A stretch of 64,000 nucleotides of DNA from a virus (lineage: Duplodnaviria; Heunggongvirae; Uroviricota; Caudoviricetes), in the IMG/VR virus record IMGVR_UViG_3300042892_003817; one strand, given 5' to 3'. This document shows positions 31,125 to 63,913 of this stretch, in pieces. The translations under genes were made by a program, and so were the position numbers. A model generated the notes under the pieces. It searched no databases. It saw only the letters and a program-made list of their open reading frames with translations, and was not told where the DNA came from. Position 1 is the stretch's first letter; each line of letters begins with the position of its first letter.

Positions 31125-32759
31125 TTACATGAACTGAGAAGGATCGATTCCTGCTCCTTGTTCATCTTTTGGTTTTATACTTGTGATAACACACTCTGTG
31201 ATTAACATTGTTCCTGCAACTGATGCTGCATTCTCTAAAGCTAGTCTTGTTACTTTAGTTGGATCAATAATACCTTCCTCTAACATATCAACATACTCCC
31301 CTGTTCTTGGATTAAATCCAATCCATTTGTGATTGTCAAAGATGTAGTTTACTCTCTCTTCAATTACTTCTGAAGTCTCTCCTGCATTTGCTAAGATCTG
31401 TTTGAATGGCTTCTGAAGTGCTTTGATTATAATGTCAAATCCTTTTTCTTGATCTGGATGTTGAGCTACTAATGGATGCTCTGTTAAGTGGAAAGAAGCA
31501 TTTAGTAAAGCAATTCCTCCTCCAGGTAAAATACCTTCTTGTAAAGCTGCTTTAGTTGCATGAAGAGCATCATCTACTCTATCTTTTTTCTCTCTCATTT
31601 CAACCTCTGTATGACCTCCAACATGAATCATAGCTACTCCTCCGATAAGTTTTGCTAATCTGTCTTGTAAGATTTCAATCTCGTAAGGTGAAACTGTATT
31701 CTCGATTTGTTCTTTTAATTGCTCAATTCTCTCTGCAATAGCTTCTTCAGTTCCTTTACCATCTACAATGGTAGTATCATCTTTACCTACTGTTACTTTT
31801 CTTGAATTACCAAACCACTGTAAATCGAATTTGTCTAGCTTCATTCCTTTCTCCTCCGATACAACTGTACCTCCTGTTAGAGCTGCAATGTCTTCAAGCA
31901 TAGCTTTCTTCTTATCTCCAAATTCAGGAGCTTTAACTGCTACTACTCTAAGAATTCCTCTCATTTTGTTTACAACAAGTGTCGATAAAGCCTCTCCGTC
32001 AATATCATCTGCAATGATAAGTAAGTCTTTATTTTGTTGTGATACTGATTCCAATAAAGGAAGCATCTCTTTTACGTGCTGGATTCTTTTATCTGTGATA
32101 AGGATTAAAGGATTGTTCAATACTGAAGTCATAGTATTGTTATCTGTAACGAAGTAAGGTGACTTGTATCCTCTGTTGAATTGCATACCCTCTACAGTTT
32201 CGAGATAAGTCTCTCCTGTTTTAGATTCTTCAATAGTTACTAATCCATCTCTACCAACTTTATCCATTGCTGTTGCAATAAGATTTCCTACTTCTGGGTC
32301 ATTATTACCTGAGATTGTTGCTACTTGTTTGATTTGTTCTTCTTCTGTAACTTCTTTAGAGTACTTCTCTCTTAAGTATTCGACTACTGCTTTAGTGGCA
32401 ATATCGATTCCTCTTTTTACTTCTACTGCATTTGCATTTTGTAGCTCAGATAATCCTTGGCTATAAATTTCTCTTGCAAGTAATGTTGCTGTTGTAGTAC
32501 CATCTCCAGCCAATCTAGCTGATTCGATTGCTACTTGTTTTACAGCTTGTGCTCCAGTATTCTCAATTGGATCTTCCAATTCTACTTCTTTGGCTACTGT
32601 TACACCATCCTTTGTTGAGGTTGGATTACCTCCTTGTTGTTGAATAAATACATTCCTACCTGACGGTCCCAATGTACATACTACTGCGTCTGCTAGTTGG
32701 TTTACTCCTGATAGTAATTTCTCTCTAGCTTCTTTTGAAAAACTAATTTGTTTTGACAT
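31125..32759 (-). CDS. groEL: chaperonin GroEL (Cpn60, 544 aa)
   Basis: Full-length match to GroEL including the ATP-binding [10 protein letters not shown] region; lacks the GGM tail. Confidence 0.9.
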
Positions 32760-32761: not shown

Positions 32762-33067
32762 CTACTCTTGTGATTTTCTGATTGTTGCTAAAATTTCTCT
32801 GTCTGGAAGTATAAAGTATTCTTGACCTTCAAAGTCAATACGGATTGTTCCTATCTTAGGAATCAATACCACATCTCCTACACTGGCTTCTACTCTAATA
32901 AATTGTCCAAATTCAGACTGGCGTCCTGGACCTACGGAAACTACTTCACCCATTTCTGGCTTTTCTTTCCCCATATCCGGAATGATAATACTTCCGAATC
33001 TTTCTTCTCCTGATTCAACAGGCTTTACAATAACTCTGTCGCTGTTAGCTGATAACTCTTGTGACAT
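32762..33067 (-). CDS. groES: co-chaperonin GroES (Cpn10, 101 aa)
   Basis: Cpn10 fold sequence (IIIPD...GEVVSVGPG) directly upstream of groEL with a 2-nt gap. Confidence 0.85.
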   Translation of the reverse strand: MSQELSANSDRVIVKPVESGEERFGSIIIPDMGKEKPEMGEVVSVGPGRQSEFGQFIRVEASVGDVVLIPKIGTIRIDFEGQEYFILPDREILATIRKSQE

Positions 33068-33130: not shown

Positions 33131-35464
33131 CTAATGACCTTCTGCAAAGTTATTTGCTATCTGTGGTGGTGCCTTTAGAGTTACTCCCGGTAGTTGTGTT
33201 GTTAATTCCATCAACTCTTGAACGTAAGGCATAAACATTTCTGCTTGATCTTCTCTTACATTTATGATCAACTGGTCATGAATCTGAGCTTGTACTCTAC
33301 CGTCTATTCCTAACTCTTTTGCTTTTCTATTAATCTGAATTGCTGCTCTATTCACAACCGCTGCCGCTAAAGACTGTAACTGGTAGTTCAAGCAGTTGTT
33401 TAATCCATTTCGATAATCTCTATACATCTGCATTACAGGATCTTTTCCGTACTGCTGTTCAAGACTCTTTCTAAATCTCCAATCCAATACTTGATCTCCA
33501 AACTTTTCAAAGATCAATTTCACTTTTGGTAAGTGTCTGATTCGTCCTACTTTATTTTGGATATACCCTAGCCTTTTTACTTGCTCTCTAGAGTTAACTC
33601 TCCACTCTTTTAATTGAGGAAAACCATCTAGGTAACCTGCTACAAGAGTATCAGCTTCTTTCTGAGATATATTTAAAGTCTTTGCCAGAGCATATGCTTC
33701 CATTCCGTATGCAATTCCTAGAGAGTAAGCCTTAGCTTGATTTCTTTTTACTGGATCTAATTTCTTTAAGAAGATAGGAGATTTAGTATCAGGTGAAACA
33801 CCGTCTGGATATTTTACTTTATCTTGATCAAGCTTCTCAGTTCTAATAGCAACAGTAGAATAGAAATCCCATCCGTTGTTAAAAATCTCTTGAAGATTAA
33901 TATCACCTGCTACAGAAGCAAAGCAGTGAGGTTCTAGAGAAGTATAGTCATTATCGATTAACTTTCTTCCTTCTCCTGCAATTAAGAACTCTCTTACTAC
34001 ATTTGTATACTTTACAAGTAGCGGGGTATCTTCTCCTTCTTCTTTAGGCTTTGGTAATTGCTGAGCATCTGATCCATACCTTCCTGATACCGTACCATGC
34101 TGCTTGTAGTAAAAGTAGTATCTTCCGTCCTCTTGACCGTCTAGGAATCTATCGATGTAAGTTGATTTAATTTTTAGTAACTTATTATATGTTCTAAGGT
34201 TATTTGCCCATTCATAAGTCTTAGATAACTCCTCTAACATATCCATGTCAAATTGATCTTGACCTTTTTTAGTCTGAGTAAGAGGTTTGATTCCCATATA
34301 CTTGAATGCAATCTCACCTAAGTGTTTCTTAGATTGAATATTCAAATAGTCTCCTTCATTCTCTTCCTTCCACATCGACATAGAAATTCTAACAACTTCC
34401 ATTTCGTCTAGTAGGTTTAAGTCTCCTGTTAGTAGAAATTGTTTTATATTACTCTCTTCTAATTCGTCAATAGCTTTTTTAGTTAAAGAATACTTTCCAG
34501 TCTTTTCGCTTCTCTCTAAAGGAAGAGAGTGAAGCATAATTAAATTCTGTGCCCAGTTACCTTTGTGTGAAGGAGGGTAAGTATAAAGTGCTGTATCAAC
34601 TACCCATTCCTTTGCCTCTGGAATGCTTAGTATACTGTCAATTACTATCTTTTTATTCGATTGTAGGTCATTTGTAATATCATCTCTAGTCTTTTCTAGT
34701 AACGGAAGATTTAATGCTACTCCTATCTCTTCCATTGGAACAGTTACTTCTTTGTAAAGAGGCATTACTTCTTCTTCAAAGAAGAATTTCTCTAGTCCTT
34801 CTTCCTTTAATACTTTTAAGAAGTGATTACAAACTCTAAGGGTTAAATCCGTATCGGCTGCAGCATATTTGGAAAGAATTGCCATATCTGCTTTAAAGAT
34901 CTCGTAAAGATCTTTTGTAGTTGATCCTCCATTTGCTTTAATAGATTCTTTTAGCTCTACTTGCTCTTTGTTAGCTGCTTCTTCTACATTTAGTCCGATC
35001 TCTTTCTGAATAGAGATAGCTAATGCCTTTAGTCCAAACACTCCCATACCAGCTCCTTCTTCCTGTACTGTATGAACAAGGAGAGCTGTATCTACCCAAA
35101 GATCTTCTAATAAAGATACTCCGTAATAGTTCTTAGTAATTCGGCAGTCAAAAGAAGCATTGTGCATTACTAGTCTCTTACCCTTAAGCAGCGGGAGTAA
35201 CTTTTTAGTAATGTCATGTGCTCCTTTTCCGCCAATAATACATTCCTCTAATTGATTTGTTTCTGTATTCCATTTCTGAGTTGGAAGATAGAATCCTATT
35301 CCTTCTTCTCCTGATACGGACCATCCTACGATTCCATCTCTTCGGACATTTAATCCAGTTGTCTCAGTATCATAAGCAAGAACCTCTGACTGATTAATAT
35401 GCTCGATAAGAAGGTTGATAGTCTCGATACTATCGACGTGGTAATACTTTTTTTCTATTTGCAT
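33131..35464 (-). CDS. polA: family A DNA polymerase (PolA-like) with a 3'-5' exonuclease domain and no 5'-3' exonuclease domain (777 aa)
   Basis: Exo motifs YDTETTGL, HNASFD, YAAADTD; polymerase motifs DYTSLEPH (A), RNQAKAYSLGIAYG (B), QIHDQL (C). Confidence 0.9.
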   Translation of the reverse strand: MQIEKKYYHVDSIETINLLIEHINQSEVLAYDTETTGLNVRRDGIVGWSVSGEEGIGFYLPTQKWNTETNQLEECIIGGKGAHDITKKLLPLLKGKRLVMHNASFDCRITKNYYGVSLLEDLWVDTALLVHTVQEEGAGMGVFGLKALAISIQKEIGLNVEEAANKEQVELKESIKANGGSTTKDLYEIFKADMAILSKYAAADTDLTLRVCNHFLKVLKEEGLEKFFFEEEVMPLYKEVTVPMEEIGVALNLPLLEKTRDDITNDLQSNKKIVIDSILSIPEAKEWVVDTALYTYPPSHKGNWAQNLIMLHSLPLERSEKTGKYSLTKKAIDELEESNIKQFLLTGDLNLLDEMEVVRISMSMWKEENEGDYLNIQSKKHLGEIAFKYMGIKPLTQTKKGQDQFDMDMLEELSKTYEWANNLRTYNKLLKIKSTYIDRFLDGQEDGRYYFYYKQHGTVSGRYGSDAQQLPKPKEEGEDTPLLVKYTNVVREFLIAGEGRKLIDNDYTSLEPHCFASVAGDINLQEIFNNGWDFYSTVAIRTEKLDQDKVKYPDGVSPDTKSPIFLKKLDPVKRNQAKAYSLGIAYGMEAYALAKTLNISQKEADTLVAGYLDGFPQLKEWRVNSREQVKRLGYIQNKVGRIRHLPKVKLIFEKFGDQVLDWRFRKSLEQQYGKDPVMQMYRDYRNGLNNCLNYQLQSLAAAVVNRAAIQINRKAKELGIDGRVQAQIHDQLIINVREDQAEMFMPYVQELMELTTQLPGVTLKAPPQIANNFAEGH

Positions 35465-35987: not shown

Positions 35988-36257
35988 CTAAAATTCCCCG
36001 TAAAGGTCAAATTTTTCTGGCTCTGGAGGTGTCCAGGTAACTGTCTGAGTTCTTATGGCGTATAGTTCTCCTTTTAGAGGTTCTAACCTGTAAGCTCCTT
36101 TAAACTCTGTCGCTCTCATATAAGCTGATAGAGTTGGTACCAGTCCTTCAATTGTATGTAAGGGTGCTGATGGCCATTGTCCTTTCCAGTTATCTCCTGG
36201 TGGTGTTCTTAAGGCAATAAGCTCTAATACTTCTTCTTGTCTTGAGTTAGCTTCCAT
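35988..36257 (-). CDS. hypothetical protein (89 aa)
   Basis: ORF. Confidence 0.4.
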   Translation of the reverse strand: MEANSRQEEVLELIALRTPPGDNWKGQWPSAPLHTIEGLVPTLSAYMRATEFKGAYRLEPLKGELYAIRTQTVTWTPPEPEKFDLYGEF

Positions 36258-37183
36258 TACTGACGTAATGTTTTAGCCATTCTACAAGTAATATCTGTAA
36301 AGAATCCTGGGATTAATTTCTTATGGGAAGCTCTAATTGGATTAATATCCAATCCTCCTCTACGAGTATAAAGACAAGCTACCATTAATTCTTCTGGATT
36401 GTAAGCTTCTTTTAAGTGCATGTAGATCATTTCACAAATCTCTTCGTGGAAGTGACTTACTTGTCTGTGACTTACAATATATTTTGCTAATGATTCTAAA
36501 TCAGGAACAACTCCTGCTGTTGGTTTAATATGAATAAATACATCACCCCAGTCTGGTTGGTTTGTTACTCTACAATTTGATCTTAAAAGATTAGACTGTA
36601 TTTTTATTTCTCCAATTTCAAAGTCTTCAGATACTTCTTCTGACTGTAACTGTGTAGCGTCTGAATGGTAAGAAGTAAATTCAATTTTGTTTAAGTCAAC
36701 CAAAGCATCCAATGGTGCATATCCTTTAAAGGCATAGCTTGGAGAATGCTCTGATGTAAACATCTCTACCTGTACTTTTGTCTGTAGTAAGTCAGATAGG
36801 TCTTTCTTTACTCTTTCTTTTAGTAACTTAATACATTCATGATCTGTATCTCCCAATTGAGTCATATTGAATGAATTCAAATACAATTTAATTGATTTAG
36901 ACTCTACGTGAAGTTTTGAATCGGCTGGATACCAAATCTTTAACATTCCTACTACTGGTAATCCTTTTGTAGTGATTGCAGATACTTCGTATGCATTCCA
37001 AACATCTCCTCCAACAAATGGAAGGTTATTATCGTCAATTCCATACGCTTCTCTATTCAAGTAACGTGGAATTTCTACCAATAGACTTGGATCGTAAGTA
37101 TCGCTATATCCTGCTCCACCTACTTGTCCTAGATGCTTTCCTGCAATCTTTACAACTTCTGCTTGATTTAATTCTTGTGTCAT
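36257..37183 (-). CDS. queF: NADPH-dependent 7-cyano-7-deazaguanine reductase QueF, two-domain type II (308 aa)
   Basis: Collinear with E. coli QueF (YqcD): DTYDPSLL, ESKSIKLYLNSFN, CRVTNQPDWGDV, SHRQVSHFHEEICE, TRRGGLDINP. Confidence 0.8.
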   Translation of the reverse strand: MTQELNQAEVVKIAGKHLGQVGGAGYSDTYDPSLLVEIPRYLNREAYGIDDNNLPFVGGDVWNAYEVSAITTKGLPVVGMLKIWYPADSKLHVESKSIKLYLNSFNMTQLGDTDHECIKLLKERVKKDLSDLLQTKVQVEMFTSEHSPSYAFKGYAPLDALVDLNKIEFTSYHSDATQLQSEEVSEDFEIGEIKIQSNLLRSNCRVTNQPDWGDVFIHIKPTAGVVPDLESLAKYIVSHRQVSHFHEEICEMIYMHLKEAYNPEELMVACLYTRRGGLDINPIRASHKKLIPGFFTDITCRMAKTLRQ

Positions 37184-37184
37184 T

Positions 37185-37736
37185 TTATTTTATATAGTTT
37201 AATATTTGTTCAACTCTTTGATTAGGACTTCCTGTTACTGTTAAGTAATCTCCTCCAGCAAACTTAATTGACTTTAAGTTAATTTCAAACTGCTTATCAA
37301 TTGCTTCTCTCCATCCTTCATTTACACTCCTTACTCCATCATCTACAGAAGCAAATTCAATAGGGAAATAAATAAAATGTGTATATTGATCTTTAACTCT
37401 TAACCAAGTATCTAAGATGTATGTATAAGCACTATCGGATAAATTATCCATATAAGTAGAATAAACTAATAGATCTAAATAACATCTATCAAGTATTACA
37501 TCTTTAGTAGCTAATAATGCCTCTAAATGGAAAGAAGAAATAGCAAGCTGTGTTTCAGAAGTTCCTGCTTCATTAATAGGAAATCCATAACTACCAACCG
37601 TTCTTGTTGATTCATTTATAAAATCATACTCAGGTAATTTACTTTTAAGTAATTCGTATACTGTAGTCTTCCCTACTGATGATGCTCCTACTAATGCTAT
37701 TCTTTTCATAACTAATTTTTTAAAAAGTCTACCCAA
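37185..37736 (-). CDS. P-loop NTPase/kinase (AAA_28 / nucleoside-kinase-like, 183 aa)
   Basis: Walker A IALVGASSVGKTT; small single-domain kinase-like protein. Confidence 0.5.
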   Translation of the reverse strand: MGRLFKKLVMKRIALVGASSVGKTTVYELLKSKLPEYDFINESTRTVGSYGFPINEAGTSETQLAISSFHLEALLATKDVILDRCYLDLLVYSTYMDNLSDSAYTYILDTWLRVKDQYTHFIYFPIEFASVDDGVRSVNEGWREAIDKQFEINLKSIKFAGGDYLTVTGSPNQRVEQILNYIK

Positions 37737-38239
37737 AGACTTACTGATATACTATGTAAGATATGAAATAATTCTCCTATTTCCAACCCTTTTATAGAAA
37801 CTTGTCTCTGTAAAAGTATAGCTCCTTCATCCACTCCTTCTGTTACTCTATGAATAACACATCCAGAATGTTCTAATCCTAAGTCAAAAGCTTTTTGCTG
37901 AGGATCTTTTCCTTTTAGTTCTGGATACTGAGTTATAAGTCCTGGATGTCCATTATAGATTTCAAATCGATTACAAATACCTGGTGGCATAATCCTTAAC
38001 CATCCATGAAGAGTTACTAAAGCATTATCATACTGAGCCAATAGAGGAAATAGTTCTTCTTCTGAAGGCTTATTGTCTACGAAGATTAAGTGCTTATTTT
38101 CTAAAGCAGGATGAATCTTTCTAAGATGTTCTGGTCTTTCGTTTGTAATAATAAGGTCAGGCCATCTTCCTAGTAGCTTTGATACTTCTACGATCTCTGA
38201 TCCTGTTTGACTAAAGAATGCTATCCAAGGTCTATTCAT
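37712..38239 (-). CDS. formyltransferase (PurN/Fmt N-terminal-domain fold, 175 aa); candidate preQ1-DNA formyltransferase (DpdN-like)
   Basis: IAFFSQTGSE...ITNERPE...LHGWLRIMPPGICNRFEIYNGHPGLITQYPELKGKDP...GCVIHRVTEGVDEGAIL matches the formyl-transferase catalytic core. Confidence 0.55.
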   Translation of the reverse strand: MNRPWIAFFSQTGSEIVEVSKLLGRWPDLIITNERPEHLRKIHPALENKHLIFVDNKPSEEELFPLLAQYDNALVTLHGWLRIMPPGICNRFEIYNGHPGLITQYPELKGKDPQQKAFDLGLEHSGCVIHRVTEGVDEGAILLQRQVSIKGLEIGELFHILHSISVSLWVDFLKN

Positions 38240-38397
38240 GTGATATACTTATTATTCTATCCTCATTCATAAAGATAAAATTTCCTTTCACTCTTAAACT
38301 GTACGAAGGTTTTCCTCCTGAATTACTGTCTACTATTCCAAATACTTCGGCATCTATAATCTCATTATCGAGATTTATAATAACCATTTCCCCTATC

Positions 38398-39192
38398 TTA
38401 TACTTTGCGTCCATTTGCAAACCATCTGAATTTATGAATGTTCTGAAGAATCATATTCGTATCTTCCGGTACGTAGTTGATTAATTCAAATAACTTTTGA
38501 GACTCTTTTGACCATAATCCATCTGCTCTATACTCAACTCCTTTTATACCATGTACAACTGGATTAGAAGTATCTAAAGAATAGATCCATTTATAGTCTG
38601 AGTAGAAAGAAAACTCTTGAGGTAATCCACATCCCAATAGGTGATGCTTCTTCTCTTCGTTTATAACACCGTCTCTCAATAGATCTCCTAGTAGCTTAAC
38701 CCTTCCTAGCATCCAACTAACATACTTGTTAGGATGTGAAATAGTATTTGTATAGTACGAGTAGTCGAATGAAATTGCAATCATATCTACATTTGCAATC
38801 TTATCCATATACTCATAACAAGTCTTAATTTGACTGTAAGTCTTTCCTTGAACAACTCCTATTTTCTTTCCTGGAAGATTTTTATACTTGTTATTCCATT
38901 CTGTCATTTGCTGTACAGTCTTCTTTGCATCCTCTAAAGCATCCGGAACTATATACCAATCTGGCTTTAATTCTAATACCCAGCCTGCAAACTTCTCTGC
39001 ATCAAAAGCTTCTTCTAATTCAAAGATAGAATTATCTAAAATAATTTCTCTACCTGCTTCTTTAGCATCTTGAAACTGTTTTAAGTATTCTGGATCTTCT
39101 TCAAATAAATGCACTAATGCATAATCATAGTCAGTATACTTCTGTACTTCTTTAAAGATACTCTTCGGTGATTCGTGTGCTATCTTAATCAT
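38398..39192 (-). CDS. candidate DpdA (tRNA-guanine transglycosylase-like DNA 7-deazaguanine transglycosylase, 264 aa)
   Basis: Context inside the que cluster; HHLLGCGLPQEF resembles the TGT RYLMGVGKPED loop; predicted alpha/beta fold. Weak. Confidence 0.35.
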   Translation of the reverse strand: MIKIAHESPKSIFKEVQKYTDYDYALVHLFEEDPEYLKQFQDAKEAGREIILDNSIFELEEAFDAEKFAGWVLELKPDWYIVPDALEDAKKTVQQMTEWNNKYKNLPGKKIGVVQGKTYSQIKTCYEYMDKIANVDMIAISFDYSYYTNTISHPNKYVSWMLGRVKLLGDLLRDGVINEEKKHHLLGCGLPQEFSFYSDYKWIYSLDTSNPVVHGIKGVEYRADGLWSKESQKLFELINYVPEDTNMILQNIHKFRWFANGRKV

Positions 39193-39388
39193 TATCTTCT
39201 GGTGTTATATCTTGTAAATCTTCTACTAATCCTCCTAACTGTGCTTGTAATGTTTCCATAACTTCTGCCAGTTGACTATCGATAGACTTCTCAACTGCTT
39301 TATATGCCTCTGATAAAGGAATCATATCTATACCTAAAGTATCAATAAACACTTTATGCTTTTCTAAATGGTCTAGTGCTGCTTGCAT
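39185..39388 (-). CDS. hypothetical acidic protein (67 aa)
   Basis: ORF. Confidence 0.35.
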   Translation of the reverse strand: MQAALDHLEKHKVFIDTLGIDMIPLSEAYKAVEKSIDSQLAEVMETLQAQLGGLVEDLQDITPEDND

Positions 39389-39900
39389 TATTTAATTCTA
39401 TTAAATTTACTTAACTGCTCTTGAGTAAAAAACTGAGAAAGATCTGGTCGGAAGTAATTTACATTCTTCATTACTTTTCTATCTCTTGTTCTATAAACAA
39501 CGTAATACTCTCCAACTTTTTCGTAATGACACTCCTCACCTTGCTCACTCGATCTCTGAATGACAGTTGCTTTAGCGTCTTCTTCTGTTTGGCAAGCTTT
39601 TGATAGATTTGAAGCTTGAACTTCTTGATATGCTGGCCATATCTTATCCTTAAGGCCATGTAACATAGTACCGTTCCCAGTGGCAACATAAGTAATATCG
39701 CACAAAGCATCCAGAACCTCAACGATGTCTCCTGCTTCGCAAGCTTCTCTATATTCTTCCAATTCCTCAAGGATGAAATTGTATACAAATTCCCATTCTT
39801 TTCTTTCGGGGATAGTTGGTTCATAGTTATTAGGTTTACCCATTACGGCATTAAATTCCTCTACCTCATCAATAAAAGGTACTTTTGGATCTGTAATCAT
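39388..39900 (-). CDS. mazG: MazG-like nucleoside triphosphate pyrophosphohydrolase (170 aa)
   Basis: EELEEYREACEAGDIVEVLDALCDI (E-x2-E...E-x2-D MazG motif). Confidence 0.6.
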   Translation of the reverse strand: MITDPKVPFIDEVEEFNAVMGKPNNYEPTIPERKEWEFVYNFILEELEEYREACEAGDIVEVLDALCDITYVATGNGTMLHGLKDKIWPAYQEVQASNLSKACQTEEDAKATVIQRSSEQGEECHYEKVGEYYVVYRTRDRKVMKNVNYFRPDLSQFFTQEQLSKFNRIK

Positions 39901-39909
39901 AACTTTTTA

Positions 39910-39951
39910 CTTTTTTATTAATATAAGAAATTGGCTCCGAAGAGCCAACTT
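39910..39951 (-). promoter_or_regulatory. promoter module with an embedded GGCUC-UUCG-GAGCC hairpin (39933-39946)
   Basis: atataagaaattggctccgaagagccaact. Confidence 0.45.
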
Positions 39952-39952
39952 A

Positions 39953-40150
39953 TTATTCAATTACTTTAATAATTTTAGATTGATTAACTCCTACTACTGC
40001 GAAGTTAGACTCTCCTTCGAACTCTGTATAGATCTTTGCTTCAGCTTCTGTTGCTGAAATTGCATCTACTAAATAAAGTTCTTTTACTCTTTGAATACGA
40101 CCTCGGTCATTTTCGTGCTCCAATTGCACAGTTACTTGCCAATAATTCAT
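39953..40150 (-). CDS. hypothetical protein (65 aa)
   Basis: ORF. Confidence 0.4.
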   Translation of the reverse strand: MNYWQVTVQLEHENDRGRIQRVKELYLVDAISATEAEAKIYTEFEGESNFAVVGVNQSKIIKVIE

Positions 40151-40165
40151 AATGTTTGGTTTTAG

Positions 40166-40873
40166 TTATTTTTTTCCAAGTTTAATATTTGTATAGAATT
40201 CTGCTCTTGCTGATGCTTCATCTAAGAAACACCCTGTTAACTTTGCTGTTTGCATTGAAGCTCCCTGATGTTTAATCCCTCTACACGATACACAGTTATG
40301 TGTTGCTGAAATTGCTACTGCTACTCCTAGATTACCTTCACAGATTTTATCTACTGCATTATGAATTGCAACTGTTAACTGCTCTTGAATAGCTCCACGT
40401 CTAGCAAACTGCTCTACAATTCGATTTAATTTTGAAAGCCCAACTACCTTTCCATCTGCTGAAGGAACATAAGCTATACTTACCTCTCCTGAAATTGTTT
40501 GGTGGTGATGTGAGCACATTGAGGTAACTGGTATATTACTCTCTTGTACTATTCCATCATAACCATCAGAAGGGAATGCTGTAATTCTTGTTAGTGGTTC
40601 AAATCGACCTGCCCATAAATCGTTTACGTATGCTTTTGCAACTCTTTTAGGAGTATCAGATGAATTTGGATCATTCTGCCAATCACATCCTAAAGCTGAA
40701 AGGAATTGTCCGAAAGCTTCTGCTGCATCTTCAATGATGTGTTGCTTTTCTACTTCAGTTAATCTTGCTTCTGGACCTTCTGTTAGTTGTTTTTTTGCCA
40801 ATTGAGAGGAAATACCATTAGCGAATCCGGCTTGTACTAATTCTGTACCGTCGATAAATTTTTTATTTGACAT
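40166..40873 (-). CDS. folE: GTP cyclohydrolase I FolE (235 aa)
   Basis: MCSHHHQTISGEVSIAYVP parallels the FolE catalytic MCEHHLVPF..AYIP segment. Confidence 0.8.
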   Translation of the reverse strand: MSNKKFIDGTELVQAGFANGISSQLAKKQLTEGPEARLTEVEKQHIIEDAAEAFGQFLSALGCDWQNDPNSSDTPKRVAKAYVNDLWAGRFEPLTRITAFPSDGYDGIVQESNIPVTSMCSHHHQTISGEVSIAYVPSADGKVVGLSKLNRIVEQFARRGAIQEQLTVAIHNAVDKICEGNLGVAVAISATHNCVSCRGIKHQGASMQTAKLTGCFLDEASARAEFYTNIKLGKK

Positions 40874-40944
40874 ATAAGATTGTTTTTATGGAGGTTCTAC
40901 GACTCCGTTTTATTTAATATAACATTTTTTACTTTATCCTGCAA

Positions 40945-41340
40945 CTATTTTTTCAAATAATCTTGAATAGTTTCTGAGTCATTTCTTTCCCAAGGGTATA
41001 CAATCCACTCTGTTCCTACTTCTTTTGAGTAGAAGTCTGGAGTAAAGATTGCTGTTGGTTTGTAATGAAGCGTTGCAGTATACATTCCAATAGTATTTTT
41101 TAACGTCTCTCCTGTATCACAAATATCATCTACTACCAAAGTATCTTTATTTATTCTACTAACGTAAGGTATGTGGAGCTTGTGGGAGATCATTACTGCT
41201 GGTATTAATCCTCCTCTTTGAATACCTGTTATCGATTTAATCTCTGCTCCTGATGCTGCTATTGTATTTGCTAAATCTTCTACTAAGATGTTGATATCAT
41301 CCCAGCTTAAATAAACTTTATTTCCTATTTTTAGTGCCAT
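40945..41340 (-). CDS. gpt: xanthine-guanine phosphoribosyltransferase-like type I PRTase (131 aa)
   Basis: QRGGLIPAVMIS, VVDDICDTGETL (PRPP motif) and WIVYPWE align with E. coli Gpt SRGGLVPGALLA, VIDDLVDTGGT, WIEQPWD. Confidence 0.75.
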   Translation of the reverse strand: MALKIGNKVYLSWDDINILVEDLANTIAASGAEIKSITGIQRGGLIPAVMISHKLHIPYVSRINKDTLVVDDICDTGETLKNTIGMYTATLHYKPTAIFTPDFYSKEVGTEWIVYPWERNDSETIQDYLKK

Positions 41341-41342
41341 AA

Positions 41343-41927
41343 CTATTTAATTTTTACTTGATAATCTACAAACGTTGCTTTCTTTGGTGCTTCATTTAGA
41401 AAGTAAAAAGCAATTGTCTTACTCTTAGTTTTGATAATCTTATAGAAAGCCGTAGGAATAGCTGCACCTGCCGGAACTCGTCTGGGATTTTTATCAAATA
41501 CTATTTTTATTTCAACGTTGACTGGTCCTTCTGAAAAGGCTAAAAGTCTTTCATAGTCTTCTAATAGTCTCCAATGAACTCTATTTAGTCTTTCATTTTG
41601 AAGAGTACAGTTTAGGTATGAGAATGTTTTAAATAACATTTCTCTAGTACAGTTAAAGTCAGCTGCTGGTGCACAATGTCCTTTGTCGTAGATATTGAAT
41701 GCATAGTCTTTTTCATCTGAGGTATGAATTGTTTTATCTTTATAGAAATCCATTCCTTTTCTAGATGCTCCTACTCCAGTGCACAGTACTTGGTACTTTA
41801 CCCACAATGGTTGCTCTAATGTCTCTGAATACATTACCTCGTATATGTCTGTCTTTACATAAACGCTATCTCTTAACTGTCCAAACCCTAATAACGGAAG
41901 TAAGAGTAATAATAAAAACTTCTTCAT
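41343..41927 (-). CDS. secreted Endonuclease_NS-family (DNA/RNA non-specific) nuclease (194 aa)
   Basis: Signal peptide MKKFLLLLLLPLLGFGQL; YDKGHCAPAAD matches the DRGH-x-AP active-site motif. Confidence 0.5.
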   Translation of the reverse strand: MKKFLLLLLLPLLGFGQLRDSVYVKTDIYEVMYSETLEQPLWVKYQVLCTGVGASRKGMDFYKDKTIHTSDEKDYAFNIYDKGHCAPAADFNCTREMLFKTFSYLNCTLQNERLNRVHWRLLEDYERLLAFSEGPVNVEIKIVFDKNPRRVPAGAAIPTAFYKIIKTKSKTIAFYFLNEAPKKATFVDYQVKIK

Positions 41928-41928
41928 A

Positions 41929-42222
41929 CTATACCTTTGCGATTGTAATTCCTTCCACGTCTACAATTTGTAGTTGTGAGATAACTTCGTCTCCTGATAC
42001 TTCTGGATCTGTTGACTCCAATACGTAATTTACTAATTCTTCGATAGATACTTTATCTTTAAATCCTGTCTTACCTGAGTCACTTGGTATTAATACTAGC
42101 TCTAAATTAAGGTCTTGATTGAATTGTAACTTATAATCCCAGATGTAAAGGCCATCTGCTTTTGGATATGATTTTGATAGTTCTCTATCCCCTGCTAAAT
42201 CGATTAGATCTTTTAATGTCAT
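41929..42222 (-). CDS. hypothetical protein (97 aa)
   Basis: ORF. Confidence 0.4.
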   Translation of the reverse strand: MTLKDLIDLAGDRELSKSYPKADGLYIWDYKLQFNQDLNLELVLIPSDSGKTGFKDKVSIEELVNYVLESTDPEVSGDEVISQLQIVDVEGITIAKV

Positions 42223-42234
42223 AACTTTGTTTTT

Positions 42235-42456
42235 TTATTTAATTGTATATTTAGTTTTTCCGTCTGGTGATTGTGCTGATATTTCTCCGTTTGCTAGAAC
42301 TGTTAGTTCTAAATCAAACTCTTCCTTTAAAAGTCTTTTTACTGTTGCTGCTTCAAGCCCTCTACTTTTCCATAGTGTATGAAATACTGTTAGTACTTCA
42401 AACTCTGTTGCTCTTTTTACTGCCATCTTACACTTCTCTTTGGTCTTCAAATGCAA
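42235..42456 (-). CDS. hypothetical protein (73 aa)
   Basis: ORF. Confidence 0.4.
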   Translation of the reverse strand: MHLKTKEKCKMAVKRATEFEVLTVFHTLWKSRGLEAATVKRLLKEEFDLELTVLANGEISAQSPDGKTKYTIK

Positions 42457-43201
42457 TGATGTGAGGTCTCCAGGTCAATCTATAACCGTTATCTCTAACC
42501 CAATCAAACATTTTTGGATATGATTTGAATAAAGCTTCTCTTGAATCTCCTGCTGGCATGAACCATACTTTATCTTCTGGTATGTCTAGCATTTTAATAC
42601 AATTCATAATCTCTTTTAATGCTTCTTGATCCTCTCCATCCCATACCGGTTTTAAATGGTAGTCTGAATGATAAGAGATTGATTTGGATATTGCATCGTA
42701 GTTTAATCTTAGCTTGTTATGCTGTTTAATCATTTTCTCATCTGTAATGTCTCCTTGAGGTGTTGCAATGCCAACCTTAGGGACAGAATTACTGAACTTA
42801 GGGGAGATTGATAATAGATTAATTGGGTAATCTGTCTCAAGAAAATGACTTCCTTCGGTCTCAATCGTAATGAAAATATTTCTTTCATGTGCAAAATGTG
42901 TTAATTCGTTTACTAATGCTGGATGCATTGTTGGTGATCCTCCTGTTAGCATCATCTCTGTGATGTGGGGATTGGCATCATACATGTTAATAATATCTTG
43001 AAAACTGATATGTCCTTTTTCAGGATGTATACTTGTGTACCAAGAATCGCACCATCCACCATCACCAAACCAACATCTGTGAGTACAGCCTGTTGTTCTG
43101 ATTACTACGGTTGGATAACCTGCTCTACTTCCTTCTGATTGTACTGCTGTATAAAGCTCTACAATGGGAAGTGTTTTGTTATAATCTTCTATTCTTTTCA
43201 T
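42428..43201 (-). CDS. queE: 7-carboxy-7-deazaguanine synthase QueE (radical SAM, 257 aa)
   Basis: LYTAVQSEGSRAGYPTVVIRTTGC-x3-C cluster-binding segment and MLTGGSP motif. Confidence 0.8.
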   Translation of the reverse strand: MKRIEDYNKTLPIVELYTAVQSEGSRAGYPTVVIRTTGCTHRCWFGDGGWCDSWYTSIHPEKGHISFQDIINMYDANPHITEMMLTGGSPTMHPALVNELTHFAHERNIFITIETEGSHFLETDYPINLLSISPKFSNSVPKVGIATPQGDITDEKMIKQHNKLRLNYDAISKSISYHSDYHLKPVWDGEDQEALKEIMNCIKMLDIPEDKVWFMPAGDSREALFKSYPKMFDWVRDNGYRLTWRPHIIAFEDQREV

Positions 43202-43202
43202 C

Positions 43203-43397
43203 TTAATATAAATTGTATTGACAATATTTTATGTAAAATTCAGTTCTTCCTATTTCTTGCAGCTCTTCTACATACTCCCATACTTCAGAAGCATATTTTT
43301 CCTTTCCATACAAATCATCTCCGTACTTTAGAGTTTCAAAGTCCCATCCTTTATCGAATGCTTTTGTTGCTAGGTAAATTATTTCACTCAGTTTCAT
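43203..43397 (-). CDS. hypothetical protein (64 aa)
   Basis: ORF. Confidence 0.4.
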   Translation of the reverse strand: MKLSEIIYLATKAFDKGWDFETLKYGDDLYGKEKYASEVWEYVEELQEIGRTEFYIKYCQYNLY

Positions 43398-43514
43398 CTT
43401 CCTGTTATTTGTTTTATATACCTTTCTACCGCTACTACTTTCTGTCTTAGATCTAATTTAGAGTCTATTACATTTTGTAAGTACTGATGAAACTCGTCCA
43501 TTGTTAAGTTAGGC

Positions 43515-43976
43515 TTACTCACCATAAGATGCTGAGTTCCTTTCATGTTCGTAAACTTCTACCTTAGTAGCTCTTACTCTACTGTTTGTTTCTTCAAGTA
43601 AAAATGTATTGATTTTTAAATGTAAGTATTCTGCAAATCGTTCACATCCTGTAGCAGGAAGTATTCTTAACTGTATAACGCCGTCGTTATGCATTTGTTT
43701 AAATGTATCCATATAAGGATCATCCTCTGCTACAATAGTTGTATGATCTAATAGGTAATCGAAAAATGCTTTTGGAGAATATCCTTCGATGTTTCCTTTA
43801 GCTCTTTTCATTCCTCCGAAGTCCCATACCCAGTTTCTTTCGTCTAGTTCTCCTTCGAACCATACTCGGAATGATACGGCATAGCCGTGAAGAAATCTGC
43901 AATGTGTACCCTCTGCTTTCCATTGTCGAAAGCATGCTGAGTAGCCGTCAAATAGTTTTGTTGCTTGAAATTTCAT
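43515..43976 (-). CDS. queD: 6-carboxy-5,6,7,8-tetrahydropterin synthase QueD (PTPS fold, 153 aa)
   Basis: FSACFRQW...HCRFLHGYAVSFRVWFEGELDERNWVWDFGGMK parallels the PTPS/QueD core. Confidence 0.75.
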   Translation of the reverse strand: MKFQATKLFDGYSACFRQWKAEGTHCRFLHGYAVSFRVWFEGELDERNWVWDFGGMKRAKGNIEGYSPKAFFDYLLDHTTIVAEDDPYMDTFKQMHNDGVIQLRILPATGCERFAEYLHLKINTFLLEETNSRVRATKVEVYEHERNSASYGE

Positions 43977-44138: not shown

Positions 44139-44462
44139 TTAAACTAATTCTTCGTAAATTCCAACTATTTCACTTAAAATTAATACTCCAGCTCCTAATA
44201 AAAGATTAAAAGGTAATAGAAAGTATCCAAGTATTCTTATACCGGATTTGATAAATGAAATTTGTTGATGTAGTTTTGGATCTGGAATTGCTAATAGATT
44301 TCTTCTAGTTGCTTCTTCAAGCAGTTCTTGCTGAGTAGTAAAGTTTGCATAGGTTTTGAAATCTCCTGGTGAGAGTTCTTTCTTTTTTTGTTCTAGAACT
44401 CTATCCATTATAACCGATTGTTCTGCTTTCTCTATGGAAGGCTTCTTAAAATATGTTGCCAT
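44139..44462 (-). CDS. membrane protein (107 aa)
   Basis: C-terminal TM helices. Confidence 0.4.
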   Translation of the reverse strand: MATYFKKPSIEKAEQSVIMDRVLEQKKKELSPGDFKTYANFTTQQELLEEATRRNLLAIPDPKLHQQISFIKSGIRILGYFLLPFNLLLGAGVLILSEIVGIYEELV

Positions 44463-44529: not shown

Positions 44530-46200
44530 TTATGATCCTACTCTAGTTAAAAAGAGCTTGTTCATACGGAACCATCCCATGTACTCTCTTCCTTGATCAA
44601 AATAATCTTCCCAATCCTTCTCTGCTTTTAAATCTCGGACTAATCCTTTTTCTGCAAACTTCTCCCACCAGTAGTCTTTTGTTTGACAGTTTATATGACC
44701 TATTCCTTGCTGTCCTGGATGTGCTGCTGTGAAGATTAAAGTACCTCCTGGTTTAAGGTTTTCGTATAACTTTTCAACAATACTGTCGTTGTGTTCTGTC
44801 TCTATGTGCTCGGCTACTTCCAGGCAGATAATTAGTTCTGATTTATGGTTTAGGTCAAAGATACTCTTTTTAAAGAGAAAGTCCTGATCTTCTACTACAT
44901 CGTTAATATCGTACCCAATAGCATCAATTTTTTCTTTTCTTAAGGACCTTACATAAGTCCCACTCCCGCAACCTACATCGACTACTTTTTTAGGATTGTA
45001 ATACTTTTTAATCCACTTAGCTAGATTATCTGCAAATGGCTTTTCTTCTTCCTCCATATTTGTATAATTGAAAGCATCAGTCTTCCCTCTAGGAATATCT
45101 GTTTGATACCATCCTTCTCCTTCATAAACATTTAAAATATCTTTAAAATATTTTTCGTACATAGGAGCTACATTCTCTAATGAAAACTTTTCTCCATACT
45201 CTCTACAAGTCTTGTAATCTATTTCTCCGTTGTTAATTTTTATAGTTGCCTGCAAGTAATCATCAAACGTTCTACATCTGTAACCAGTTACTCCGTTTAT
45301 ATTATTCTCTGCAAAGGCTCCCCAGTCTGAGGTAATTGTTGGTGTTCCTGATAGTAAATTTTCTATTTGAACTCCTCCAAATGGTTCAACATATTGTGAA
45401 GGTAGGAAGCATCCTTTTGCACTCTTCATCAGTTCTTTTCTCTTTTCGGTTCCAGCATACCCTACAAACTCTACATGAGGAGGAAACTTTCCATCCTTAT
45501 AAGGTCCATCGGCGTCAATCTGTCCTGCTATCTTTAATTTATACCCTAAGTGTTCAGTAACCTGGATTGCTATATTAACTCCTTTTCCGTCAAAGACTCT
45601 TCCTAAATAAAGAAAGTAATCTTCTTTTTTATCGCTAAATTCAAAATCAGAGAGGTCGAAGTAGTTTGGAATTACTACTTCGTAGTTTTTCATATCGCAA
45701 TAATTCACTCCCATCAGTCCGTAGTATGCATGGTAGATTGCATAAGATTCAAATACTTTCCAATTTGCCCAATGCCCTCCTGCATAGCCTATTCCTGGTT
45801 CAACAGTTATTAAATCTGGATGTCCGTCACATACCGGCCTTACTCCTGACCCCCAGAATGGTAAAATGAAATCATTCTTCTGTTTTCTCTTTCCTATTTC
45901 CTTTATAGCATTTTTATAGAAGGTTTGATAGGCTTCATCCTCTACATTATATTTAAAGAATTTAGATTTATAGTCATGAGTACCGTATACTTTTTTCCAT
46001 ACCTTATTGGTGATAACTGTTACGTTTTCCGCATATGGAGCGTCGCTCTCCTCATGTCCGTAATGGTAGATAGTATGCCCTCTTTCCCCCATCATCTTAC
46101 AGAATTTCCAAGCCTTTTGTGTATAAGCACATGCTACAAATTCTCTATTAGTGATTGTATGAGGAAGTCCTAATACGTGGAATGTAAATTTATTATTCAT
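44530..46200 (-). CDS. bifunctional GT-B glycosyltransferase / class I SAM-dependent methyltransferase fusion (556 aa)
   Basis: N-terminal region with EPFGGVQIENLLSGTPTITSDWGAFAENNINGVTG (GT4 motif); C-terminal VVDVGCGSGTYV methyltransferase motif I. Confidence 0.6.
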   Translation of the reverse strand: MNNKFTFHVLGLPHTITNREFVACAYTQKAWKFCKMMGERGHTIYHYGHEESDAPYAENVTVITNKVWKKVYGTHDYKSKFFKYNVEDEAYQTFYKNAIKEIGKRKQKNDFILPFWGSGVRPVCDGHPDLITVEPGIGYAGGHWANWKVFESYAIYHAYYGLMGVNYCDMKNYEVVIPNYFDLSDFEFSDKKEDYFLYLGRVFDGKGVNIAIQVTEHLGYKLKIAGQIDADGPYKDGKFPPHVEFVGYAGTEKRKELMKSAKGCFLPSQYVEPFGGVQIENLLSGTPTITSDWGAFAENNINGVTGYRCRTFDDYLQATIKINNGEIDYKTCREYGEKFSLENVAPMYEKYFKDILNVYEGEGWYQTDIPRGKTDAFNYTNMEEEEKPFADNLAKWIKKYYNPKKVVDVGCGSGTYVRSLRKEKIDAIGYDINDVVEDQDFLFKKSIFDLNHKSELIICLEVAEHIETEHNDSIVEKLYENLKPGGTLIFTAAHPGQQGIGHINCQTKDYWWEKFAEKGLVRDLKAEKDWEDYFDQGREYMGWFRMNKLFLTRVGS

Positions 46201-47229: not shown

Positions 47230-47540
47230 ATGTACTGTAATAAAATGTAACTTAATTTATACCCGGTAAATGCTCCAAGTGCTGAAGGGAATGGAAATAC
47301 TATTAGCTTTCCTAAATCTGTTACGTACTTTGGACGGTTAACTATTTTACCTACAAAGAAGTAGTAGGCTAGATATCCTAGCAATACTGCAAGGTCTGTC
47401 TTTGTTGCAATGAATACTACTAGAGTTGCTCCTATGAATCCAAAAGTAAAATTATCTCTAACTCCTTCCCAAATTTCTCTATTGGTTGCTTCTTTATACT
47501 CCTTGATAATCTTATTTACTTTTATCTTCTGTGCTCTCAT
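47226..47540 (-). CDS. membrane protein (104 aa)
   Basis: TM segments. Confidence 0.4.
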   Translation of the reverse strand: MRAQKIKVNKIIKEYKEATNREIWEGVRDNFTFGFIGATLVVFIATKTDLAVLLGYLAYYFFVGKIVNRPKYVTDLGKLIVFPFPSALGAFTGYKLSYILLQYI

Positions 47541-56602: not shown

Positions 56603-56666
56603 AAGTTAGCAATAGCTAACCTACATTGGAGACGAAGGAATTGACCTCATAGTGGATAAAATTTAG

Positions 56667-56739: not shown

Positions 56740-56744
56740 CATTA

Positions 56745-56818: not shown

Positions 56819-56824
56819 GATATA

Positions 56825-56896: not shown

Positions 56897-56901
56897 CTTT
56901 T

Positions 56902-56974: not shown

Positions 56975-56978
56975 TTTT

Positions 56979-57173: not shown

Positions 57174-57180
57174 CAGTTGA

Positions 57181-58345: not shown

Positions 58346-58350
58346 GATTT

Positions 58351-63022: not shown

Positions 63023-63913
63023 TTAATTGTTATGGTTATCTAATACTTTTGTTACCTCTGCTACCACATGTTCCCATGTTACTGGTCCTGTTTCGTCTGC
63101 ATAAGGAGCTGGATCTTTTCTTCCTAATTTAATAAATGCTTCTACTCTTTCAACTGATGAAGCTGATTTATAATCTGAGTACCATTCTCCAAATTTAGTT
63201 CTAAGTGTTTCTTCTACTCTTGAGTTACTTTCAGGTCCAGGTATCCAAATTGGTTTATAAGATGTGTTAGTTCTTTTATAAACTTCATCAAAATTTAATC
63301 CTAATTCTTCACATAATACTTCTCCGTCTTGTAAGATAGTAAATTTATCTCCTTTCAAGTAAGGTGTAAAATACCCTACATTTTCAGCTCCCCAATTTCC
63401 TATTCTAAATGCATAATCATCAGCATCACGGAATTCTTGTCTACAATCAGGATAAATTGCATGATCTCCAGCGTGAATACCTAAAGCAATACTACAAAAT
63501 TCACCTGTTCTTTGAGCAACTGATAAAGCTATTGCTTGAGTAATAGAAGCAAATATTTTGTTTCTGTTAGGAACAACTGTTGCTTTCATATTATCTTCTG
63601 CATAGTGACCTTCTGGTACATCTTCACCTCCAGTTACTAAAGCTGAATCTAGTAAGTCAACTAATCCGTCTAGTTTGATTTGGCGATAGTTTACTTTTGG
63701 GTAAAATATGTAATTACTTCCATTAGCTTCAATAGAATCGTTTGAATTTATATAATTCACCAATGATTGAGCTCTATCTAGCTCTACTCTGTGTTTTTGA
63801 CCATAGTCAAATGAGATAGCTGTTACACTATCATACTCTTTTAGACATCTAAGTAATAATGTACTTGAGTCCATTCCTCCACTTAAGGATACTACAACAT
63901 GTTTTTTAGACAT
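63023..63913 (-). CDS. queC: 7-cyano-7-deazaguanine synthase QueC (PP-loop ATPase) with a C-terminal extension (296 aa)
   Basis: VVVSLSGGMDSSTLL PP-loop SGGxDS motif and QueC-like core. Confidence 0.75.
   Translation of the reverse strand: MSKKHVVVSLSGGMDSSTLLLRCLKEYDSVTAISFDYGQKHRVELDRAQSLVNYINSNDSIEANGSNYIFYPKVNYRQIKLDGLVDLLDSALVTGGEDVPEGHYAEDNMKATVVPNRNKIFASITQAIALSVAQRTGEFCSIALGIHAGDHAIYPDCRQEFRDADDYAFRIGNWGAENVGYFTPYLKGDKFTILQDGEVLCEELGLNFDEVYKRTNTSYKPIWIPGPESNSRVEETLRTKFGEWYSDYKSASSVERVEAFIKLGRKDPAPYADETGPVTWEHVVAEVTKVLDNHNN

Follow-up and report, generated by a model that had tools for sequence, protein, structure and literature searches.

We analysed a 64-kb stretch of DNA (hereafter the window) from the IMG/VR virus record IMGVR_UViG_3300042892_003817 and found in it an intact gene cluster predicted to replace the guanine of phage DNA with a modified 7-deazaguanine. 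The cluster encodes enzymes for making preQ1 from GTP, a guanine transglycosylase of the DpdA3 type and DpdN, a PurN-like formyltransferase. It is a second lineage of the system published in 2023 for Flavobacterium phage immuto_2-6A, and not a discovery. From homology to that system we predict that the end product in the DNA of the window phage is very probably fdPreQ1, or 7-(formylamino)methyl-7-deazaguanine, a formylated form of preQ1, and that it probably stands at essentially every G. What goes beyond the 2023 paper are natural DpdA3::DpdN fusion proteins, the pairing of DpdA3 with an AAA_28 P-loop protein, and the presence of a GNAT domain in the DpdN slot of two relatives.

In the DNA of immuto_2-6A, liquid chromatography with ultraviolet detection and tandem mass spectrometry found 345,000 fdPreQ1 per 10^6 nucleotides, with deoxyguanosine (dG) and dPreQ1 undetectable and the identity of the base confirmed by a synthetic standard (PMC10516641), and this DNA resists restriction enzymes that have G in their sites (Cui, Hutinet et al., NAR 2023, PMC10516641). 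The transglycosylase of the phage was assigned to a new subfamily, DpdA3, tied to complete replacement: every DpdA3 phage that was tested is completely modified, whereas other DpdA subfamilies reach at most 30% (PMC10516641). The neighbouring PF00551 protein was named DpdN and proposed to be a 'preQ1 or dPreQ1' formyltransferase, an activity that is predicted only (PMC10516641). In the literature we found no later work on DpdA3, DpdN or fdPreQ1 beyond the 2023 paper.

An intact cluster shared with phage immuto

A Megablast search of the cluster against 50,697 phage records returned as its sole matches three isolates belonging to Flavobacterium phage vB_FspM_immuto (four records, genus Immutovirus), with 86.4% nucleotide identity over 85% of the query. 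The genes that carry the proposed pathway, with the amino acid identity of each product to its immuto orthologue, are the following:

36257..37183, minus strand: QueF, bimodular NADPH-dependent preQ0 reductase (Pfam QueF_N and QueF, E 8e-34 and 8e-21); 82% to gp69
37185..37709, minus strand: AAA_28 P-loop protein, nucleoside/nucleotide-kinase-like (Pfam AAA_28, 1e-11; PHROG 'thymidylate kinase'); 86% to gp68
37712..38239, minus strand: DpdN, PurN-like formyltransferase, 175 residues (Pfam Formyl_trans_N, 2e-15); 87% to gp67
38398..39192, minus strand: predicted DpdA3-type guanine transglycosylase, 264 residues, a minimal triosephosphate isomerase (TIM) barrel of the tRNA-guanine transglycosylase (TGT) fold without zinc subdomain; 96% to gp65
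40166..40873, minus strand: FolE, GTP cyclohydrolase I, the first step from GTP (Pfam GTP_cyclohydroI, 3e-44; NCBIfam FolE, ~1e-43); 89%
42428..43201, minus strand: QueE, radical S-adenosylmethionine (radical-SAM) 7-carboxy-7-deazaguanine (CDG) synthase (Pfam Radical_SAM; the five best NCBIfam matches are QueE models); 95% to gp57
43515..43976, minus strand: QueD, 6-carboxytetrahydropterin synthase (Pfam PTPS/QueD, 5e-15); 61% to gp55, the most diverged enzyme of the set
63023..63913, minus strand: QueC, preQ0 synthase (Pfam QueC, 6e-34); 82% to gp28

All cluster genes lie on the minus strand, and most of them touch the next gene or share a few bases with it, in the manner of an operon. The order QueD-QueE-phosphoribosyltransferase-FolE-DUF4494-MazG-DpdA3-DpdN-AAA_28-QueF-PolA is common to the window and immuto_2-6A, with QueC apart in both. 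FolE, QueD, QueE and QueC, along with QueF, are all present and intact, with Pfam domains above the gathering cutoffs and lengths that agree with those of the immuto orthologues. An earlier note on this DNA, made from the letters and a list of open reading frames (ORFs), had proposed the four preQ0 genes, a two-domain QueF and, between QueF and a candidate DpdA, a formyltransferase of the PurN/Fmt fold; each of these is borne out at the position it gave, with QueC 19 kb from the main cluster. The note had also placed the polymerase, MazG and GroES/GroEL alongside, which is right for the first two, while the chaperonin genes are present but lie beyond the polymerase.

Within the biosynthetic set, QueF contains at residue 94 the sequence ESKSIKLY, which fits the QueF motif E(S/L)K(S/A)hK(L/Y)(Y/F/W), and has the catalytic cysteine, Cys204, within CRVTNQPDW, and the window QueC has an insertion of ~30 residues and a C-terminal extension. 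In the window QueE we observed only three N-terminal cysteines, spaced C39-x3-C43-x7-C51, versus the usual radical-SAM CxxxCxxC.

The window is collinear, in reverse, with ~18.5-75 kb of the immuto_2-6A genome, and blastn aligns 46 of its 64 kb (~72%) at roughly 70-96% identity. By the convention of the International Committee on Taxonomy of Viruses, a genus is set at ~70% and a species at 95% genome-wide nucleotide similarity. Judged by these similarities, the window phage clearly belongs to another species than immuto and is, at species level, a new relative within a known group of phages. One uncultured IMG/VR contig, L011, is closer than immuto (90-96% nucleotide identity), and its gene order is identical to that of the window, nuclease and glycosyltransferase gene included. 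Differences from immuto include the following: a non-specific nuclease lies inside the window's cluster, whereas its immuto orthologue lies at 9.9 kb; the window QueD is flanked by a glycosyltransferase-methyltransferase gene and a 107-residue membrane protein, which replace immuto gp50-54; and the distance from QueC to the main cluster is longer than the 10.5 kb seen in immuto, partly because of a 21-gene tRNA array.

A scan of IMG/VR yielded at least 536 confirmed stretches that encode relatives of the window DpdA. We compared gene order in the best 80 of these loci, whose DpdA identity ranges from 51 to 98%, and observed that the order DpdA-DpdN-AAA_28-QueF is nearly constant. Where at least 2.5 kb is available downstream of DpdA (60 loci), DpdN and QueF are each found there in 58 and AAA_28 in 54. 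Thirty loci are well covered, extending 8 kb or more on each side. All of them have FolE, DpdN, AAA_28 and QueF; 26 have QueD, and QueE, MazG and PolA are each present in 25. The 107-residue membrane protein is encoded by 23 of these loci, QueC by 19, the phosphoribosyltransferase by 18 and the nuclease by 16. Since the same order recurs in dozens of independent viral contigs, it is not due to chance. Among viral contigs of aquatic origin the fdPreQ1 module is common; the DpdN proteins known to the 2023 paper numbered four (PMC10516641).

A minimal barrel of the DpdA3 subfamily

The product of 38398..39192 belongs to a large family, with 3,180 matches in a database clustered at 90% and 1,560 clusters at 50% identity; PHROGs matched the window protein only to a family of 'unknown function'. 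It is 43-44% identical (E 1e-50) to the Campylobacter CP220-group proteins that define DpdA3 (44% to CP220 gp056); tblastn from the window DpdA did not retrieve phiST, whose CGPG_00065 is, like immuto gp65 and the CP220-group proteins, a founding member of DpdA3. A profile built from 56 diverse family members has as its best PDB sequence match 7ui4, the Salmonella DpdA, and this match, weak at E 0.084, falls on the motif HLLG...D(S/T)xxP. An AlphaFold model made with a 62-sequence alignment has a predicted local distance difference test score (pLDDT) of 96.8; the model has a TGT-type (beta/alpha)8 barrel, and the top 50 structures retrieved with it by Foldseek are all TGTs.

The active site expected of a DpdA has three invariant aspartates, for general acid/base catalysis, base recognition and nucleophilic attack, along with a Phe and a Leu that stack on the base. 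In the Salmonella enzyme, Asp95 is the acid/base and Asp256 the validated nucleophile, and Asp130, Phe99 and Leu236 are further residues of note (PMC10164549). When the window protein is aligned to 7ui4 by hidden Markov model (HMM) and the numbering of the PDB chain is corrected by its offset of 20 residues, D207 falls on Asp256 and L186 on Leu236. By inspection of motifs, rather than by residue-level superposition, LDNSIF (D53, F57) corresponds to TGT TDSGGF (E. coli D89/F93), and IVPD84 to IFD143 of E. coli TGT. D53, D84 and D207 are invariant across the 62 DpdA sequences. The chain ends at residue 264 and has no CxCxxC...H zinc region. Isoelectric points (5.6 for DpdA3, 6.0 for E. coli TGT) are uninformative on DNA binding. 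Orthology, modelled fold and catalytic residues agree, and together they support the assignment of this product as a TGT/DpdA-fold protein that fits the definition of DpdA3 and is a predicted transglycosylase. The earlier note had offered the ORF as a candidate DpdA that was to be confirmed or relocated by a profile search, and the candidate passed that check in its original place.

The likeness to bacterial DpdA/DpdB, as in the Salmonella Montevideo Dpd system (PDB 7ui4; PMC10164549), is remote. Identity to the window DpdA3 is 13%; DpdA3 has 264 residues against ~410 in bacterial DpdA and is without the C-terminal zinc subdomain and the DpdA-specific insertions; and the bacterial enzyme places preQ0 at specific sites, at <0.1% of G. 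DpdB is a ParB-like ATPase unrelated to AAA_28. Nearer are the CP220-group Campylobacter phages (dADG DNA) and phiST (dDG DNA), which share the DpdA3 subfamily of the window and for which complete G replacement is reported, but which stop at CDG-derived bases and have neither QueF nor DpdN. The earlier note had listed Dpd clusters, phage 9g and Cellulophaga phages beside Flavobacterium phages as systems in which a formyltransferase gives this base. Of these, the Flavobacterium phage alone has been shown to contain fdPreQ1; 9g contains dG+, Cellulophaga phiSM dPreQ1/mdPreQ1 and Cellulophaga phiST dDG (PMC10516641).

DpdN, its fusions and its replacement

The best PDB sequence matches of DpdN are glycinamide ribonucleotide transformylases. 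The catalytic N106, H108 and D144 of E. coli PurN are matched in the alignment by N96, H98 and D137 of DpdN, which are at least 95% conserved among 60 distinct DpdN sequences. A highly conserved N-terminal motif, FFSQTGSE, aligns with the SGNGSN loop of PurN, which we take to bind the phosphate of the ribonucleotide substrate. DpdN has the same fold and the same catalytic Asn-His-Asp as PurN; it differs in length (175 versus 212 residues) and in being genomically linked, and sometimes physically fused, to DpdA3. The window protein is 87% identical over all 175 residues to the founding DpdN, immuto gp67 (KNV73_gp067), and we predict that it formylates the 7-aminomethyl group of preQ1.

Two metagenomic proteins of 447 residues, P0180 and P0185, are natural fusions of an N-terminal DpdA3 to a C-terminal Formyl_trans_N domain of the DpdN type. 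The C-terminal half of P0180 is 40% identical (E 2e-37) to the full-length window DpdN. The fusion gene lies at L005:2262-3605 (GCA_036681025.1, JAXDEL010746375.1), and the P0180 contig has the order QueC-x-DpdA3::DpdN-AAA_28-QueF, as in the window. These fusions provide independent support for a functional link between DpdA3 and DpdN, and for the predicted assignment of the latter as a formyltransferase.

The formyltransferase could instead be an ordinary PurN, with the que genes serving to boost the host's queuosine-tRNA precursor or with a DNA that holds plain dPreQ1. GenBank does call the orthologue a phosphoribosylglycinamide formyltransferase, and PurN is the best NCBIfam match of the window protein, but at 59 bits against an equivalog cutoff of 150 bits. 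As for queuosine, a 2019 survey considered supply of its precursor for phages without a known DpdA, and the window has genes for tRNA-Asp, tRNA-Asn and tRNA-Tyr with GUN anticodons; here, however, there is an enzyme of the DpdA fold whose catalytic residues are intact. Because the protein occurs in other phages as a fusion to DpdA3, follows DpdA with the regularity described above, and has a close orthologue in a phage whose DNA was found by mass spectrometry to hold fdPreQ1 and neither dPreQ1 nor dG (PMC10516641), we regard this whole explanation as highly improbable, and an ordinary PurN or a booster of tRNA queuosine as essentially ruled out.

Two relatives, L030 and L045 (IMG/VR 3300010885_041689 and 3300024264_002661), have a DpdA 70-75% identical to that of the window and, in place of DpdN, a GNAT acetyltransferase domain. 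In the first, L030:3327-4853 encodes a 508-residue protein with a GNAT match (E 2e-11), followed by an ORF of the glyoxalase fold; in the second, L045:6123-7079 encodes an AAA_28::GNAT fusion, in which the GNAT match is weak (E 2e-3). A GNAT domain in the DpdN slot suggests a novel DNA base, N-acetyl-dPreQ1.

An AAA_28 protein beside DpdA3

Between the formyltransferase and QueF lies the AAA_28 gene, which is absent from the earlier note. Its start at ATG 37709 agrees with that of immuto, while the mechanical ORF runs on to TTG 37736. The solved proteins nearest to the family profile are the ribosylnicotinamide-kinase domain of NadR, deoxyguanosine kinase, deoxynucleoside kinases and thymidylate kinases. 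The gene stands directly beside DpdA3 in the window, immuto, CP220, L005, L007 and L008, which are lineages that otherwise share little, and in L093 and L094 the two are parted only by QueC. The AAA_28 genes at L004:8813-9355, L007:2664-3203 and L008:2057-2617 adjoin DpdA3 directly, as in the window, and that at L093:7529-8080 is one gene away. CP220 gp057, which adjoins the CP220 DpdA3, is 29% identical to the window protein (E 1e-16). Cui et al. (NAR 2023, PMC10516641) mention no kinase or phosphoribosyltransferase.

From this distribution, AAA_28 appears to be a conserved partner of DpdA3. We considered whether it is confined to DpdA3 phages and rejected this, for homologues also occur in ~89 Streptomyces phage records, so the family is not specific to the deazaguanine pathway. 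In the one such neighbourhood that we inspected (Samisti12, ±6 kb of the AAA_28 homologue), no que or dpdA gene is annotated.

Proposed route and its alternatives

In the route that we favour, with confidence a little above even, preQ1 is made from GTP, DpdA3 inserts it for guanine in DNA, and DpdN formylates it after attachment. FolE, QueD, QueE and QueC would convert GTP to preQ0, which the bimodular QueF would reduce to preQ1 with NADPH. DpdA3 would then swap guanine in phage DNA for preQ1 through a covalent aspartyl-deoxyribose intermediate, with D207 as nucleophile and D53 as general acid/base. DpdN would formylate the exocyclic aminomethyl nitrogen, with 10-formyl-tetrahydrofolate as the presumed donor, most likely once the base sits on a deoxyribose phosphate, and the resulting DNA would be resistant to restriction enzymes that require G. 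At the edges of the pathway, the Gpt-like phosphoribosyltransferase could plausibly return the released guanine to GMP and on to GTP, the feed of FolE, and unmodified nucleic acid of the host could be degraded by the non-specific nuclease. Gene content, orthology, fold, catalytic residues and the conservation of gene order are shown by the present analysis; we infer which of insertion and formylation comes first, where the formyl group comes from, and these accessory roles.

We place formylation after attachment because DpdN keeps the PurN-like loop and because two relatives swap DpdN for GNAT, an exchange that makes more sense if preQ1 is what DpdA3 inserts and acylation comes later. The reverse order, in which DpdN acts on free preQ1 and DpdA3 then inserts the formylated base, is allowed by the discoverers, who write 'preQ1 or dPreQ1 formylase' (PMC10516641). 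It would fit the failure to detect a dPreQ1 intermediate in immuto DNA, and DpdA3 relatives appear to accept CDG, ADG or DG in other phages (PMC10516641). The DpdA3::DpdN fusion would also be apt for passing a base product on to the transglycosylase. On the other hand, the conserved DpdN loop suggests a phosphorylated acceptor, if the PurN loop has the role that we assume for it, and the close relatives that trade DpdN for GNAT nevertheless keep so similar a DpdA. The sister enzyme DpdM, moreover, has been proposed to act on preQ1 that is already in DNA (PMC10516641). On balance we think that formylation of the free base is quite unlikely.

Several observations weigh against the pathway as we have drawn it. 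Some concern the identity of its enzymes. The 264-residue DpdA ORF has no match in Pfam, in NCBIfam or by single-sequence phmmer against the PDB, and hhalign of the DpdA3 alignment with the single sequence of E. coli TGT gives a partial alignment of 8.5% probability, useful only for the motifs GVVQG and KPHHLLG. The best NCBIfam matches are the corresponding QueF, FolE, QueE, QueD and QueC models, but every que gene falls short of its equivalog cutoff (QueF 262/293, with TIGR03138 at E 5e-78; FolE 150/202; QueC 118/150). In the QueC of the window and in immuto gp28, all four zinc cysteines of the E. coli enzyme are replaced (TCY...CGHCAAC becomes TSY...YKSASS), whereas they are retained in two further phage QueCs that come from DpdA3 contigs. 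Others concern the chemistry: DpdA3 was inactive in the E. coli assay of its discoverers (PMC10516641), it is unusual for an enzyme that exchanges bases after replication to achieve complete and sequence-independent replacement, and the neighbouring genes (kinase-like protein, phosphoribosyltransferase, MazG, polymerase) look like nucleotide-pool enzymes.

Of the first group, the missing profile matches and the low que scores can be accounted for. The published DpdA3 subfamily was itself found only by HHpred (PMC10516641), and since the missing match to curated HMMs and the missing zinc subdomain are also true of published DpdA3, they exclude a canonical TGT and not a DpdA3. That the que scores lie under the cutoffs is expected of divergent phage copies, whose function is supported by the end product of the relative.

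The second group bears on a different route, in which the nucleotide pool supplies a 7-deazaguanine deoxynucleoside triphosphate for the adjacent family A polymerase to incorporate and MazG clears away dGTP. DpdA3 would then be a deoxyribosyltransferase-like enzyme acting on a nucleoside or nucleotide, or the Gpt-like enzyme would make the ribonucleotide; AAA_28 would be a dedicated kinase; and DpdN would act on a nucleotide, as PurN does on glycinamide ribonucleotide. The product would still be fdPreQ1 DNA. Such a route would make sense of the completeness of replacement in all tested DpdA3 phages, set against the partial replacement by other DpdA types, and of the bare 264-residue barrel without the TGT zinc subdomain. 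The position of AAA_28 beside DpdA3 in divergent lineages and the small-molecule nucleoside kinases that are its nearest solved relatives point the same way, as does the alignment of the DpdN loop with the presumed phosphate-binding loop of PurN. Around distant DpdA3 genes we find recurring phosphoribosyltransferases together with nucleoside triphosphate (NTP) hydrolases of the MazG, NUDIX or dUTPase/DCD type. ADG nucleoside is reported in the cytoplasm of CP220-infected cells (PMC10516641), a modified-dGTP pathway was proposed earlier for Campylobacter phages, and DpdA3 by itself showed no activity in E. coli.

Against this, all characterised members of the TGT/DpdA superfamily act on a polynucleotide, and the discoverers argue, from the occurrence of a DpdA in all such phages, that the modification is post-replicative (PMC10516641). 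AAA_28 is carried by the Streptomyces phages as well and is without a detectable copy in 6 of the 60 related loci, and large phages in general often have MazG and dUTPase-like genes. We therefore think the nucleotide-pool route unlikely, and it is likewise doubtful that DpdA3, AAA_28, the Gpt-like phosphoribosyltransferase and MazG together form a nucleotide-level pathway that feeds the polymerase and removes dGTP. If they did, this would explain both why 100% replacement is seen with DpdA3 only and why DpdA3 expressed alone is inactive. In a weaker form of the idea, which keeps insertion by DpdA3 into DNA, AAA_28 may be a missing ATP-dependent cofactor of DpdA3, playing a part like that of DpdB. 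The AAA_28-DpdA3 pairing is a testable lead on the failed reconstitution of DpdA3 and on complete replacement.

Whichever route is taken to fdPreQ1, the DNA of the window phage is expected to be without ordinary G and to withstand most restriction enzymes; nanopore reads of the native DNA and certain enzymatic library preparations are expected to be abnormal. The fdPreQ1 pathway and the restriction resistance that the earlier note predicted agree with what was measured in immuto_2-6A, the closest relative among the phage records (PMC10516641), and for the window phage itself they are predictions by homology.

Accessory and flanking genes

The remaining genes in and around the cluster, with identities to immuto orthologues where these were found, are as follows:

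31125-32759: GroEL, on the far side of the polymerase from the cluster
32762-33067: GroES, on the same far side
33131..35464, minus strand: family A DNA polymerase with 3'-5' exonuclease (Pfam DNA_pol_A and DNA_pol_A_exo1); 96% to gp72
35988..36257, minus strand: ORF of 89 residues between QueF and the polymerase; 74% to gp70; after QueF in 20/30 loci
38232..38420, minus strand: small ORF between DpdA and DpdN; 86% to gp66; found in the closest relatives only
39185..39388, minus strand: small acidic ORF, isoelectric point 4.1; 46% to gp64
39388..39900, minus strand: MazG-like NTP pyrophosphohydrolase (Pfam PRA-PH, 5e-10; PHROG nucleotide pyrophosphohydrolase, 1e-28); 95%
39953..40150, minus strand: fragment-sized ORF with DUF4494 (Pfam, 2.5e-11); 94% to gp62
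40945..41340, minus strand: Gpt-like (xanthine-guanine type) phosphoribosyltransferase (Pfam Pribosyltran; NCBIfam xanthine phosphoribosyltransferase at 1e-15, below cutoff); 85%
41343..41927, minus strand: non-specific DNA/RNA endonuclease (Pfam Endonuclease_NS, 6e-25); 74% to gp12 at the nucleotide level
41929-42222 and 42235-42456, minus strand: two small ORFs; 84% to gp59 and 67% to gp58
44139..44462, minus strand: protein of 107 residues with a hydrophobic C-terminus; a homologue lies beside QueD in 23/30 well-covered loci
44530-46200: glycosyltransferase-methyltransferase fusion of 556 residues beside QueD (GT1 family, phrog_3408, E 9e-172, plus a SAM methyltransferase)

The family A polymerase would, from its context, have to copy or make the modified DNA. 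The Gpt-like phosphoribosyltransferase has the phosphoribosyl pyrophosphate (PRPP) motif VVDDICDTGET and is also present in the distant DpdA3 loci L093 and L095. The nuclease is single-copy in the window, and among IMG/VR relatives its position in the cluster varies; immuto gp12 lies ~20 kb from the cluster, beside ribonucleotide reductase genes. No Pfam or PHROG family match was found for the ORFs at 35988..36257, 38232..38420, 39185..39388, 41929-42222 and 42235-42456. The 107-residue protein has no family match, and a search of the first 100 kb of immuto did not find it.

The ORF at 44530-46200 was considered as a GroEL or as a DNA-modifying enzyme, and turned out to join a GT1 glycosyltransferase to a SAM methyltransferase. 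L011 and L048 are the only related loci, 2 of 30, that have it near the cluster, and the first 100 kb of immuto gave no match to it; for these reasons we leave it out of the system.

Other observations in the window

At the window position syntenic with the immuto thymidylate synthase gene (gp47), 47518-47669, that gene and its neighbours are missing, and a tblastn search for ThyA gave no match anywhere in the 64-kb window. The tRNA array between the main cluster and QueC comprises 21 genes on the minus strand (56666-60752), versus 4 tRNAs in the syntenic region of immuto, and is interrupted by an HNH endonuclease ORF (57839-58345). It includes Asp(GTC), Asn(GTT) and Tyr(GTA), whose anticodons are normally targets of queuosine, in a phage predicted to make preQ1. 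A local rise of GC content to 0.39-0.40 coincides with the array, and upstream of it, at 52027-53154, lies an RNA ligase gene whose 375-residue product combines the PHA02142 OB-fold and RNA_ligase domains.

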